Assembly: GCA_012798565.1 (NCBI GenBank)
Contig: JAAZMX010000034.1
Coordinates: 1 to 35,260, forward strand
DNA from: Candidatus Kuenenbacteria bacterium
Lineage (GTDB): Bacteria; Patescibacteriota; Patescibacteriia; UBA2196; GWA2-42-15
Length of the DNA: 35,260 nt
Direction: 5' to 3'
Shown in pieces: positions 19,770 through 27,872 of the stretch (the stretch's first letter is position 1; every line of letters begins with the position of its first letter). A program made the translations under genes and the position numbers. The notes under the pieces are model-generated. The model did not search any database. It saw nothing but the letters and a program-made list of their open reading frames with translations, and was not told the DNA's origin.

Positions 19770-20234
19770 ATGGGAGATAAATATGGGGTAACGCCGGGTG
19801 ATTGGGTAAATCAAGTTGAGAATGGAGGCAACTTTATGAAAGAAAGCGCGCAGGCTGAGTGGTTTGAAAAGTTTGAGGTAAAAACGACAGCAGATTGGAA
19901 AGCTTTGTTATTAACAGAGCCAGCCAAAGCCAAAGAAGCTTTACAATATGTGATTGATAACAGAGATCATTTTCTACAGTATAATGATGGTTGGGTAAGG
20001 GATAGACATAAAGAATTGGGTAAGGCTAAGTTGAAAGCGGAGTTTGGAATAGCGGATACGGGAGAATTTCAGCAGGCGCTGAAAGAAGGAAAAATAGAGG
20101 GTGCCAAAAAGTGGCTAGAAGGCGTGATTAGATGTCATGAACAGAATGATCCAATAGTTGGTCATTATGGAGCAACTTGGGACAACTGGTTACGAGATAG
20201 AGAAGAAGAGCTGGAACAGGTTGAGAATAAATAA
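19770..20234 (+). CDS. Hypothetical protein with an internal duplication
   Basis: Two roughly 55-60-aa units, each ending W(V/L)RDR..EL. Confidence 0.75.
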   Translation: MGDKYGVTPGDWVNQVENGGNFMKESAQAEWFEKFEVKTTADWKALLLTEPAKAKEALQYVIDNRDHFLQYNDGWVRDRHKELGKAKLKAEFGIADTGEFQQALKEGKIEGAKKWLEGVIRCHEQNDPIVGHYGATWDNWLRDREEELEQVENK

Positions 20235-24698: not shown

Positions 24699-25754
24699 AT
24701 GCTTAGCAAAAGCAACGCCAGCGCGGCAGCGATTTCCTACAAATCAATCATGCGGGTGGTTTGGGTTTTATTTTTATTGTTTTTTGTTTATCTGATCAGG
24801 GACATACTGGCGCTATTGTTCGTGTCGGTAATTTTTGCGGCGGCGATTGACCCTTGGGTTGATTGGCTGCAAAAATATAAGGTGCCGAGAGCGGTTTCTA
24901 TTTTGGTGATTTACGTGGTGTTGTTGGCGATGTTCAGTTTGATTGTGGTGATGCTCGTACCGGCAATGACCGAACAGATATTACAGATGATCAATAACAT
25001 CCCTGATTATTACGAAAAAATATCAGTGGGTATCCATACTTTGCAGCAGAATAGTAACGAGGGATTGACAACAGTCAGCAGTGATTCGGTGGTGACAACT
25101 TTGCAGACTTTGAGTTCCACCTTGGCGCAGGCGACCAAAAGTATCTTTGTGACAGTGGCCAGTATTTTCGGCGGCATTTTGTCGTTGTTCGTGGTTTTGG
25201 TGATGACTTTTTATATCACCGTGGAAGAAAGCGGGCTGAAGAGATTTCTAAAACATTTGGTACCGCCCAAACATCGGGAGTATATAATGGATTTGGTGGG
25301 CAGAATGGAAATGAAAGTGGGTTTGTGGCTCCGCGGACAATTGCTTTTGTGTTTTATCGTGGGAGTGATGGTTTATTTTGGTTTGTTGTTTCTGGGGGTG
25401 GAGTATGCTTTGCTCTTGGCTTTGGTAGCCGGTATTTTGGAAATTATTCCTTATTTCGGTCCATGGCTGTCGGGCTTGATCGCGGTTCTGGTGGTGTCGT
25501 CCGATTCCTGGACCAAGATTATTTTCGTGGCGGCCTGGTACTTTATCGTACAGCAATTGGAAAATCAGATTATCGTGCCCAAGTTGATGCAGAAAGTCGT
25601 GGGACTAAATCCGATTATTGTGATTATGGTGATTTTGATCGGCGCGAGGATCGGCGGTATTGTGGGCGGGCTTTTGGGCGTGCCGGTAGCGGCGGCTATC
25701 GCGGTGTATTTTGAGGATATGTTGAAGGAAAAACAAAAAGCGGAGAAAAGTTGA
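24699..25754 (+). CDS. AI-2E family transporter
   Basis: Multi-TM protein with WLRGQ, EIIPYFGP, QQLENQIIVPK and G..G..GGLLGVP. Confidence 0.93.
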   Translation: MLSKSNASAAAISYKSIMRVVWVLFLLFFVYLIRDILALLFVSVIFAAAIDPWVDWLQKYKVPRAVSILVIYVVLLAMFSLIVVMLVPAMTEQILQMINNIPDYYEKISVGIHTLQQNSNEGLTTVSSDSVVTTLQTLSSTLAQATKSIFVTVASIFGGILSLFVVLVMTFYITVEESGLKRFLKHLVPPKHREYIMDLVGRMEMKVGLWLRGQLLLCFIVGVMVYFGLLFLGVEYALLLALVAGILEIIPYFGPWLSGLIAVLVVSSDSWTKIIFVAAWYFIVQQLENQIIVPKLMQKVVGLNPIIVIMVILIGARIGGIVGGLLGVPVAAAIAVYFEDMLKEKQKAEKS

Positions 25755-25767
25755 TATAGTAATTAAA

Positions 25768-25797
25768 TTGACAGAAGAGATAAAGGTAGTATATAAT
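25768..25797 (+). promoter_or_regulatory. Consensus sigma70 promoter of the Asn leader/tRNA-Asn unit
   Basis: TTGACA (25768-73), 18-nt spacer, TATAAT (25792-97). The leader ATG follows 9 nt later. Confidence 0.85.
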
Positions 25798-25806
25798 AAC
25801 CACATT

Positions 25807-25866
25807 ATGCAAAGATTAACCAACAATTTCAATAATAACAATAATAACCGCTGGCGGGTTGGTTAG
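25807..25866 (+). CDS. Asn-rich attenuator leader peptide MQRLTNNFNNNNNNRWRVG
   Basis: ATG CAA AGA TTA ACC AAC AAT TTC AAT AAT AAC AAT AAT AAC CGC TGG CGG GTT GGT TAG: 8 Asn codons within 9 positions, overlapping the antiterminator arm. Confidence 0.85.
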   Translation: MQRLTNNFNNNNNNRWRVG

Positions 25867-25915
25867 TTTTGAAATAGAAAGACTGACGAACCCGCCCAAA
25901 GAGAGGCGGGTTTTT
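25817..25915 (+). promoter_or_regulatory. Ribosome-mediated transcription attenuator (protector / antiterminator / terminator)
   Basis: 1:2 is TAACCAAC (25817-24) with GTTGGTTA (25858-65). 2:3 is GGCGGGTTGGTTAGTTTT (25853-70) with AAGACTGACGAACCCGCC (25879-96). 3:4 is AACCCGCC (25889-96) with GGCGGGTT (25905-12), plus a U-tract. Confidence 0.85.
25889..25915 (+). terminator. Conditional intrinsic terminator of the attenuator
   Basis: AACCCGCC-CAAAGAGA-GGCGGGTTTTT. Confidence 0.85.
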
Positions 25916-25931
25916 AAATCCCTAGTCGTGC

Positions 25932-26003
25932 TCCTCTGTAGTTCAAAGGTAGAACGCTACGCTGTTAACGTAGATGTTGTAGGTTCGAGTCCTACCGGAG
26001 GAG
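25932..26003 (+). tRNA. tRNA-Asn (GTT), CCA not encoded
   Basis: Acceptor TCCTCTG/CGGAGGA, D-arm GTTC-AAAGGTA-GAAC, anticodon arm CTACG-CTGTTAA-CGTAG, T-arm GTAGG-TTCGAGT-CCTAC, discriminator G. Confidence 0.96.
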
Positions 26004-26059
26004 CAGGACGAGGGATTTTTGATAATGGTTATTTGTGAAAATAGTTTATTTGGGATAAG

Positions 26060-26650
26060 ATGAAATTAAAGGATATTAAGCTATTTATTATGGAGTTTAA
26101 AAAATTGGAATTAAATAATTTGGAAGATATTCTTGAGATGGAAGAAAAAATGTATTGGCAGGGTAAAGAATGGCAGAAGCTTTGGCAAAAAGAGGCTAGG
26201 GATAAATTTAAGGAATTGATAAAAGATTATTTAATTAATTATCCCAATGGGTGCTGGGGGTTATTTAATACCACCGGGGAACTATTGGCAGTAGTAATTT
26301 TTACTAGGCTGAATAAGGTTAAGGCAATTCCTTATTTTCACAGGTTTAGTAATTATTTTGAGACGGCTGGTAAAATTATTTATGTACAAGTGTTTGCTGT
26401 AAAAAACAGTGAAAGTGAAGATAATTTAGCGGAGAAGATTTATGAGCAACTAGAGAGGGTGGCCAAGCATATTGGTGGACAAAAAGTAGCAGTATTAATT
26501 TATTCATCATTTTTGGAAGAAAAGATACTAAATAAGTTGGGTTATAAAATTGAGTACAATAATTTACAGTGGGAGATATATCCAGATAAGTTTGTGAATT
26601 GTAAAATATATACACGAACAGTAGATCAACGAGAAAACAATATTCATTGA
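26060..26650 (+). CDS. GNAT-fold-like protein (possible start at 26090)
   Basis: F..L...LEDILEME, G...YVQVFAV..., L....K..G...VAV and KLGY follow GNAT topology. The canonical R/QxxGxG/A loop is not present. The gene is AT-rich. Confidence 0.6.
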   Translation: MKLKDIKLFIMEFKKLELNNLEDILEMEEKMYWQGKEWQKLWQKEARDKFKELIKDYLINYPNGCWGLFNTTGELLAVVIFTRLNKVKAIPYFHRFSNYFETAGKIIYVQVFAVKNSESEDNLAEKIYEQLERVAKHIGGQKVAVLIYSSFLEEKILNKLGYKIEYNNLQWEIYPDKFVNCKIYTRTVDQRENNIH

Positions 26651-26708: not shown

Positions 26709-27872
26709 ATGAAAATAGCAGTACTTGCATCAGGCGGCGTGGACAGCTCAGTGGCTTTGAGATTACTCAAAGACCAAGGCCATGAGCTGACGGCTTTTTA
26801 TATTAAAATTTGGATGGAGGATAAATATTCTTTTCTGGGCAAATGTCCCTGGGAAGAAGATTTGGGTTATTTAGAAAAGGTTTGCAAGCAGGCGAAGGTG
26901 CCCTTGGAAATAGTGCCATTGCAAAAAGAATATTGGGCGAGAGTGGTGGCTGAAGCCATTAAAGAGGTCAAAGCCGGGCGGACACCCAATCCGGATATTT
27001 TGTGCAATCAATTTATAAAGTTTGGGGTGTTTTATGATTATATTGGTAAGGATTTTGAAAAGGTGGCAACGGGGCATTACGCGCAAGTAGAGGAACACCA
27101 CCCTGTCCCTCGGCGAGCTCGGGTCACCCCTCCTCAGAGAGGAGGGGAAAACCTCCCACCTCCTCCCTCCCCGATATTAATCGGGGAGGACTCCCCCTCG
27201 GGCAGGGGGAGAAAATTTTATTTAAAATGTTCACCGGATAAAATCAAAGATCAGACATATTTTTTGGCGCGCTTGAACCAGGAGCAGTTGGCGCGAGCGA
27301 TATTTCCCATTGGCCAATATACCAAAGAGGAAGTGAGAAAATTGGCCAGAAAATATAATTTACCAAACAAAGACCGCAAAGACAGCCAGGGGATTTGTTT
27401 TCTGGGCAAGATAAAATATCGTGATTTTTTGGAAGCGCATTTGGGGAAGAAAGAGGGTGATTTGATTAATATTAAAACCGGAGACAAGATGGGAGAGCAC
27501 GAAGGATTTTGGTATTATACGATTGGTCAAAGGAAGGACATCAAATTGTCGGGCGGACCGTGGTACGTGGTCAAAAAAAATATCAAGAAAAATATTATTT
27601 ATATTGGGCGCGAGAGCGAGGTAGTCGAGAAACGAAGAGATGAATTCACGGTTGGTGATGTCAAGTGGATTTTGGGCCGCTGGCCGGGAAAGAAAAATTT
27701 AAAAGTGAAGATCCGACACGGGAAAAATTTTTATCAGTGTTGGCTGACCTTTGGCCAAAAAGGAAAAATTAAGGTAAAATTAGAGCAAGCAGACGCCGGT
27801 ATCGCGGCCGGGCAATACGCGGTTTTTTATGACGACGGATACTGTTTGGGCGGAGGAATAATTGAAGAATAA
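26709..27872 (+). CDS. mnmA: tRNA 2-thiouridine(34) synthase with an in-frame palindromic insertion
   Basis: SGGVDSSV, TPNPDILCN, ATGHYA, KDQTYFL, DSQGICF, YTIGQR and GQYAVFY. Confidence 0.97.
   Translation: MKIAVLASGGVDSSVALRLLKDQGHELTAFYIKIWMEDKYSFLGKCPWEEDLGYLEKVCKQAKVPLEIVPLQKEYWARVVAEAIKEVKAGRTPNPDILCNQFIKFGVFYDYIGKDFEKVATGHYAQVEEHHPVPRRARVTPPQRGGENLPPPPSPILIGEDSPSGRGRKFYLKCSPDKIKDQTYFLARLNQEQLARAIFPIGQYTKEEVRKLARKYNLPNKDRKDSQGICFLGKIKYRDFLEAHLGKKEGDLINIKTGDKMGEHEGFWYYTIGQRKDIKLSGGPWYVVKKNIKKNIIYIGRESEVVEKRRDEFTVGDVKWILGRWPGKKNLKVKIRHGKNFYQCWLTFGQKGKIKVKLEQADAGIAAGQYAVFYDDGYCLGGGIIEE
27096..27211 (+). repeat. In-frame palindromic element inside mnmA
   Basis: Three GC-rich hairpins (27127-47, 27166-89, 27191-211) encoding HHPVPRRARVTPPQRGGENLPPPPSPILIGEDSPSGRGR. 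Confidence 0.85.

Follow-up and report, generated by a model that had tools for sequence, protein, structure and literature searches.

A predicted asparagine-codon leader-peptide attenuator before a tRNA-Asn gene in Patescibacteria

We analyzed a 35,260-nucleotide (nt) stretch of DNA from a Candidatus Kuenenbacteria bacterium of the Patescibacteria (contig JAAZMX010000034.1 of assembly GCA_012798565.1), hereafter the window, in which a tRNA-Asn gene is preceded by a promoter, a short open reading frame (ORF) rich in asparagine (Asn) codons, and a predicted intrinsic terminator. This element is likely a ribosome-mediated attenuator that responds to the speed at which Asn codons are read, with transcription of tRNA-Asn rising when decoding is slow. 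An earlier note on the window had proposed a leader-peptide attenuator with Asn control codons and a tRNA-Asn output, and comparison with other genomes bore this out: the ORF, its frame, its Asn run, the terminator, and the antiterminator are conserved, and the same leader also stands before asnA and asnS.

Layout and predicted switching of the leader

All features of the element lie on the forward strand. The -35 hexamer TTGACA (25768–25773) and the -10 hexamer TATAAT (25792–25797) are separated by an 18-nt spacer and together scored 12/12 in a promoter scan. The -10 hexamer ends 9 nt short of the ATG of the leader ORF, MQRLTNNFNNNNNNRWRVG, which occupies 25807–25866 and consists of 19 codons followed by a TAG stop (ATG, 25807–25809; TAG, 25864–25866). 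Eight of the 19 codons specify Asn (five AAT, three AAC), and these eight, together with one Phe codon, form a control block at 25822–25848. The 5' strand of the antiterminator (arm 2, 25853–25870) spans the final codons of the ORF, the stop, and the U-run beyond it, and its 3' strand (arm 3) lies at 25879–25896. The last 8 nt of arm 3 (25889–25896) double as the 5' arm of the terminator, whose 3' arm (arm 4, GGCGGGTT) is at 25905–25912. GGCGGGTT is present twice, at 25853–25860 and 25905–25912, and each copy is complementary to AACCCGCC at 25889–25896. The attenuator terminator read from the window sequence is an 8-bp GC stem with TTTTT; this T-tract (25911–25915) is followed by AAAT. The proposed regulated product, tRNA-Asn(GUU), lies at 25932–26003; it was called by ARAGORN, matches Rfam family RF00005 with 70 bits, and has no encoded CCA. 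Reading of the sequence, the promoter scan, and ARAGORN placed the promoter, ORF, arms, and tRNA exactly, to the base, where the earlier note had put them.

The gap between the T-tract and the tRNA gene, at 16 nt, is too short for a separate tRNA promoter, and the promoter scan listed no promoter-like site in it. On both grounds we ruled out a separate promoter for tRNA-Asn, in keeping with the earlier expectation that the gene depends on the promoter of the leader.

The minimum-energy fold of 25804–25925 is a long antiterminator hairpin in which 25848–25870 pairs with 25879–25896 plus part of arm 4; its energy of -35.4 kcal/mol (z = -5.0) was equalled by none of 200 shuffled sequences. The same alternative was predicted for the leaders of other genomes described below. 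When the RNA was truncated before arm 4, the 5' arm of the terminator paired upstream in 20 of the 22 leaders of the first round (z <= -2.7 in 14 of the 22), and in the larger set 34 of 36 leaders had a segment near the stop of the ORF with which arm 3 paired. Measured from the first nucleotide of the stop codon, this segment, arm 2, starts at a median of -2 nt (between -25 and +7), and its start lies a median of 32 nt past the first Asn codon and 8.5 nt past the last. Given known ribosome footprints, this placement suggests that a ribosome at the stop codon would mask arm 2, whereas one stalled early in the run would not. The U-run directly after the leader stop (TAG then TTTT; 25864–25870 in the window) is near-invariant, with at least 90% identity at three columns of alignment A1. 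This conservation exceeds what antiterminator pairing needs, and the U-run might be a pause site.

The earlier note had described three mutually exclusive pairings. Two of them, the antiterminator and the terminator, stood; the third, a protector helix between 25817–24 and 25858–65, did not. Its strands are a true 8-nt complement in the window, but the helix is weak and lacks conservation: nascent RNA that ends at arm 2 has a folding energy of -2.8 kcal/mol (z = +1.3), too little for a stable protector, and no conserved 1:2 protector or pause hairpin was found among 34 leaders (median -3.4 kcal/mol; z <= -2 in 1 of the 34). We dropped the protector from the model. As modeled, the switch is two-state, with read-through as the default when no ribosome is present.

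In the mechanism we propose, transcription would start a few bases before the ATG, and a ribosome would load as soon as the 5' end of the RNA emerges. With ample Asn-tRNA(Asn), it would run to the UAG at 25864–25866 and cover arm 2 (25853–25870); arm 3 would then pair with arm 4, the terminator would form, and RNA polymerase would halt at 25911–25915. When Asn-tRNA(Asn) is scarce, the ribosome would stall within the first Asn codons (25822–25839) and leave arm 2 free to capture arm 3 (about -28 kcal/mol), so that no terminator would form and polymerase would enter the tRNA-Asn gene. The outcome would be negative feedback on the tRNA-Asn pool, and candidate signals are a shortage of tRNA-Asn itself, of its charging, or of its modification. 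For this scheme we infer translation of the leader ORF, the ribosome footprints, the efficiency of termination, and the response to Asn-tRNA.

Conservation and co-variation of the leader

A BLAST search of the 251-nt region against 61 relatives gave matches in 30 genomes, including the window's own. ARAGORN recovered tRNA-Asn at 26 of the 30 matched loci, and a short ATG-initiated ORF with 4–10 Asn codons lay upstream at 22 of these 26 tRNA-Asn loci of relatives; a GC hairpin and then a T-run followed in all 22 of these first-round leaders. From the 22 we built a covariance model, R1. Searched under strict filters against a class-wide sample of 151 genomes, it gave hits in 26. Besides the window's own locus, R1 returned 27 loci: 21 stand directly before tRNA-Asn, one before a tRNA-Asn with a T-loop insertion, and one before asnA; a further two are similarly built leaders rich in Ile, and two are apparently false. 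A second model, R2, was searched phylum-wide and had matches in 13 of 151 genomes. The searched genomes have one Asn leader each, save one (G124) with two, both of them before tRNA-Asn copies. Removal of seven antisense or spurious rows from 44 matches left a set of 37 leaders.

Within this set, 36 of the 37 leaders contain an in-frame Asn-rich ORF of 13–24 codons with 4–10 Asn, so the run is in frame with an ATG at the homologous loci, a point that the earlier note had singled out for checking. Codons in the run window are overwhelmingly Asn (232 of 261; 173 AAT and 59 AAC), with a single AAA and no AAG. Such third-position variation would be expected if the run is read as codons, and would not be expected of a simple A-rich spacer. 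Outside the Asn run the peptides are unrelated. A promoter scoring at least 9/12 occupies the matching place in 34 of the 37 leaders, with 6–10 nt (mode 9) between the end of the -10 hexamer and the ATG. Transcription from sigma-70 promoters usually starts 6–8 nt after the -10 hexamer. At the spacing found here, such a start site gives a 5' untranslated region of 0–3 nt, with no room for a Shine-Dalgarno sequence, and we infer that the leader mRNA is leaderless or nearly so.

These same features bear on a reading in which tRNA-Asn is sensed directly and without translation, in the manner of a T-box, with the AAU/AAC repeats serving as specifiers for the GUU anticodon. The many cognate codons exposed in an unstructured 5' region would suit such a sensor. 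However, the fixed distance between promoter and ATG, the kept frame, and the placement of the stop codon at arm 2 would then have no role, and neither the T-box nor any other riboswitch family was matched at E <= 10 (for the T-box covariance model, in 25400–26300). We regard direct sensing as highly improbable.

To look beyond the modeled relatives, we scanned one genome per species (185,579 species) for an AAT/AAC run 80–110 nt before the D-arm of tRNA-Asn. The scan reported 82 stretches, and our counts cover the 80 loci listed. We called a leader where a short ATG-initiated ORF with at least four Asn was followed by a hairpin of -7 kcal/mol or lower and a T-run. The wider genome search that the earlier note had suggested was thus productive: this architecture was found at 65 of the 80 loci listed. 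By title, it was found at 41 of 43 loci from Patescibacteria lineages, 21 of 23 titled 'uncultured Gammaproteobacteria', and all three titled only 'bacterium'. The 'uncultured Gammaproteobacteria' titles are doubtful, since one locus so named matches a genome from the order of the window with 100% identity across 402 nt, and we set the 23 aside as evidence for the element outside Patescibacteria.

The remaining loci bear on whether the arrangement could be a chance one, a low-complexity AT-rich spacer beside an ordinary terminator. AAT repeats are common in AT-rich spacers, and 11 loci whose titles name other phyla (Bacillota, Mycoplasmatota, Klebsiella, and a Bacteroidota symbiont) do carry an AAT/AAC run 80–110 nt before tRNA-Asn. 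However, none of these 11 has the ORF and terminator, compared with 65 of the 69 other loci, indicating that a chance run of Asn codons before tRNA-Asn comes without them, and the arms co-vary (see below). Within the genome of the window (1.06 Mb in 75 contigs, 42% GC, 47 tRNA calls by ARAGORN), a short ORF rich in cognate codons lies within 220 nt upstream of only one of the 47 tRNA genes, that for tRNA-Asn, and only five short ATG-initiated ORFs in the whole 1.06 Mb have at least five Asn including a run of three or more. On these comparisons, within the genome and by conservation in relatives, a chance origin of the ORF-terminator-tRNA arrangement is excluded; the probability we would leave to it is practically nil. 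Another short ORF with five Asn, upstream of tRNA-Gly on contig C26, has no attenuator features and looks like chance. By eye, the same contig also has, at about 20131–20197 and just upstream of tRNA-Gly(GCC), a tRNA-like fragment that ends in CCA and whose T-arm is identical to that of the tRNA-Gly.

The arms co-vary, as the earlier note had proposed to check. Duplexes of arm 2 with its cognate arm 3 averaged -13.0 kcal/mol, versus -8.5 kcal/mol for non-cognate pairs, and duplexes of arm 4 with arm 3 averaged -12.25 versus -6.8 kcal/mol; in neither case did any of 10,000 permutations match the cognate mean, figures that overstate independence because related sequences share arms. The leaders comprise 27 different arm-3 cores, with arms 2 and 4 that match them. 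In alignment A3, which was fitted to the model, 93.1% of the terminator helix is paired and five of its six pairs show compensatory changes, a level reached by none of 500 shuffles and by none of the slid controls (at most 47.5%).

This pattern of change also bears on the idea that the main product acts in trans, either as terminated leader RNA or as the Asn-rich peptide, with control of the tRNA secondary. Terminated leader transcripts would be abundant, and the portions of the articles available on rnTrpL/peTrpL in Sinorhizobium offer a precedent (PMC7968998; PMC7298713). Against this, the peptide is unconserved outside the Asn run, the arm sequences drift freely so long as they stay complementary, unlike a trans-acting seed, and the element always stands immediately before an Asn-related gene. 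We consider a trans-acting main product very unlikely.

Targets, asparagine supply, and known systems

The targets of the leader extend to other genes. In a genome of the same class (G089, locus L047), the leader stands before asparagine synthetase A (NF005054, 322 bits versus a cut-off of 309), and that genome's own tRNA-Asn has no such leader. It stands before asnA again in G210 (L063, 335 bits) and before asnS in three further genomes (G284, G216, and G263; loci L064, L066, and L069), with a tRNA-Leu gene intervening in G263. A weak version with two Asn lies before aspS in G051. Leaders of the same build but other composition were found as well: one with three His and two Asn codons before hisS (G236, L070), and tandem Ile-rich leaders before tiny ORFs at two loci (L051 in G153 and L058 in G037). 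The leaders before asnA, asnS, and tRNA-Asn suggest a sensor tied to the supply line of Asn-tRNA, with sister sensors for other amino acids.

A different reading of the switch is that it reports translation in general, or the coupling of transcription and translation, with the Asn run merely a slow stretch and the signal being ribosome availability or elongation speed. Without a conserved protector hairpin, absence of a ribosome would indeed mean read-through, and a leaderless start would tie loading to free ribosomes. Yet the run is specifically Asn, in the proportion given above and with only T/C variation at the third position; the same leader precedes asnA and asnS rather than random genes; and the Ile- or His-rich sister leaders before other targets, including hisS, argue that the amino acid matters. 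A general sensor is therefore unlikely in our view. Returning to the attenuator that senses decoding of Asn codons, we lean toward a broader picture in which Patescibacteria run the tRNA-Asn pool as a closed loop, scaling transcription of the gene to the demand of ribosomes for its product, with a portable leaderless sensor that each lineage has plugged into its limiting step, be it the tRNA gene, asnS, or asnA.

The gene content of the window's genome informs what the circuit could be for. The earlier note had held that it makes most sense if tRNA-Asn is the limiting substrate of the indirect AspRS/GatCAB route. That rationale turned out not to be needed. The genome has asnS (449 bits versus a cut-off of 342.6), an asnB-type asparagine synthetase (493 bits versus 267), and gatB, so the circuit does not depend on the indirect route. 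The aspS gene adjoins asnS and encodes a 469-aa bacterial-type enzyme whose discrimination the family models do not tell. No asnA-type gene scored above the cut-off in this genome, and a search for an Asn leader before its asnS gave no match with filters off (best E 6.6). A tgt gene is present, with which sensing of queuosine status may be compatible.

The earlier note had also raised the possibility of a second, constitutive tRNA-Asn. No canonical one was found. ARAGORN made a second tRNA-Asn(GTT) call on contig C56 (2820–2894; L075), with an encoded CCA, T as its base 37, and atypical anticodon and T-loops. We rejected this call as a working tRNA-Asn, since it has no Rfam tRNA match at E <= 1; it is either some tRNA-like element or a miscall. 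The gene in the window is thereby the only supported tRNA-Asn in the genome.

The element combines the defining features of a leader-peptide attenuator: a promoter-proximal start of a predicted ORF, a run of control codons, a predicted intrinsic terminator between the ORF and the gene, a mutually exclusive antiterminator with its 5' strand at the stop codon, and a target in the supply line of the same amino acid. Classic examples from enterobacterial amino-acid operons include the his leader, whose control codons are consecutive His codons, as well as trpL, pheL, thrL, leuL, and ilvL. The element resembles these his/trp-type attenuators in having a short ORF with a control-codon run and a Rho-independent terminator, in the predicted choice of structure by ribosome position, and in the placement of the 5' strand of the exclusive antiterminator at the ORF stop codon. 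It differs from them in its Asn control codons, in an output that is a tRNA gene where theirs are biosynthetic enzymes, in the apparent leaderless mRNA without a Shine-Dalgarno sequence, and in having no conserved 1:2 protector, so that, without translation of the leader, read-through and not termination would be expected. Rfam models (release 15) run on 25400–26300 found no leader family at its gathering score: Thr_leader (RF00506) reached 19.4 bits versus 55 (E 0.6) and Trp_leader (RF00513) 14.7 bits versus 41 (E 6.6), and no other leader family was listed. We discounted these sub-threshold matches, together with one to P9 sRNA (E 0.00098), as only a sign of hairpin-plus-U geometry.

Leader-peptide attenuators of charging genes offer a further parallel. 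In E. coli, pheM before pheST is a leader-peptide attenuator of synthetase genes. A T-box riboswitch binds tRNA directly and needs no translation. The element shares with the former an output in the charging machinery, as the Asn leader before asnS and the His/Asn leader before hisS in Patescibacteria illustrate; unlike pheM and the His leaders of bacilli, the leader in the window has the tRNA itself as its output. It shares with the T-box a design in which the state of one tRNA species would switch a terminator and an antiterminator before supply genes of that amino acid, and it differs in lacking a T-box match and in features that all suggest translation of the ORF. PMC2965389 describes such His leaders, which in bacilli lie upstream of hisS paralogs; a count of 'asparagine', 'asnS', and 'tRNA gene' in that paper gave zero for each. 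In mycobacteria, leaderless polycysteine short ORFs have been described as Cys-responsive attenuators (bioRxiv 10.1101/834739). As far as the available portion of that preprint goes, the likeness lies in a leaderless short ORF with a codon run for one amino acid that regulates downstream genes, and the difference in the amino acid, the phylum, and an output that there consists of operonic protein genes.

The earlier note knew of no attenuator with Asn control codons or a tRNA as output, and our full-text search of the literature agreed, finding no description of a leader peptide for Asn, of a tRNA gene controlled by attenuation, or of any leader peptide from Patescibacteria. Bacterial tRNA genes are generally portrayed as being transcribed in step with growth rate rather than with the state of an individual tRNA. 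If our reading is correct, ribosome-mediated attenuation would have here its first known case at a cellular tRNA gene: the cell would gauge how well it can decode one codon family and make up a shortfall by producing that tRNA, and genomes of about 1 Mb with few regulators would rely on cheap switches made of RNA and ribosomes. Where the indirect route operates, the tRNA would become a regulated scaffold of asparagine synthesis. The 37 leaders and 65 scan loci collected here suffice to define a new RNA family for annotation, and the element is a compact candidate sensor of Asn-tRNA supply.

Several observations weigh against the attenuator as we describe it. In the window, arm 2 begins just 4 nt beyond the final Asn codon, so a stall on the last two or three Asn codons would mask arm 2 and favor termination. 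With the protector hairpin absent, an uncoupled or untranslated transcript would read through. The U-tract in the window is short (five T, then AAAT) and went uncalled by a simple terminator scan. Among the first-round relatives, two leaders have just three consecutive Asn (L017 and L021), one attenuator-like leader has a single Asn by eye (L023), and one locus has no leader (L008). The exception in the set of 37, L048 (G093), has its Asn run shifted by one base from the frame of the ATG at a stretch of seven A, an offset that could be an assembly error, decay, or slippage. Column-based counting gave a weak result for the antiterminator, with 68.4% of cells paired versus 64.8% in shuffles (reached by 8 of 500) and 55.7% when slid by +1. 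This weakness arises because arm 2 is out of register across genera in alignment A3, where it is displaced by 4–5 columns in the window's own genus, and we judged the antiterminator by the alignment-free tests instead. Among contigs from four sequencing runs, the only one from an RNA library spans 25300–25481, inside the upstream transporter gene and off the leader and tRNA. Finally, the advantage of extra tRNA under a shortage of the amino acid is hard to see, given asnS and the asnB-type gene.

Neighboring features and tRNA genes in relatives

The 5' flank of the tRNA (25916–25931) pairs with its 3' trailer (26004–26020, with the paired part at 26004–26018 and TTTTT at 26016–26020), and this helix extends the acceptor stem; the fold of 25913–26026 has -47.7 kcal/mol (z = -5.5). 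The flank-trailer helix is probably both a processing stalk and a terminator, which would close a unit consisting of the leader and the tRNA alone. Several relatives have comparable flank pairing, or an ordinary terminator directly after the tRNA.

Nested tRNA genes were observed in relatives: a complete tRNA-Asn with complementary flanks lies within the D-loop, anticodon loop, or T-arm of an interrupted tRNA-Asn. By eye, such nesting occurs in at least 11 of the 26 loci (L002, L004, L009, L010, L011, L012, L013, L015, L016, L017, and L018), with partial cases at L007, L024, and L057; the locus in the window is without nesting. In some copies the T-loop holds a conserved insert of two hairpins. 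Two genomes (G049, with L033, and G161, with L035) each have two quite different tRNA-Asn(GTT) genes. The one behind the Asn leader has a GTT(C/T)/(G/A)AAC D-stem, and the leaderless one, which lies upstream, has a GCTC/GAGC D-stem. The leaderless tRNA-Asn of G089 is also of the GCTC/GAGC type.

Upstream of the element lie genes for an M16 peptidase and an AI-2E transporter, and downstream are a 196-aa ORF and mnmA. The 196-aa ORF (26060–26650), the next after the tRNA unit, had no Pfam or NCBIfam match at E <= 0.001. The product of mnmA (26709–27872) matches its family in two stretches, between which lies an insert of about 40 residues rich in Pro, Arg, and Gly (residues ~126–167). Contigs from two DNA runs end within the stretch from the promoter to the Asn run (25773–25846), and strain variants in one DNA run fall at 25862, 25897, 25924, and 25929 and are non-compensatory.

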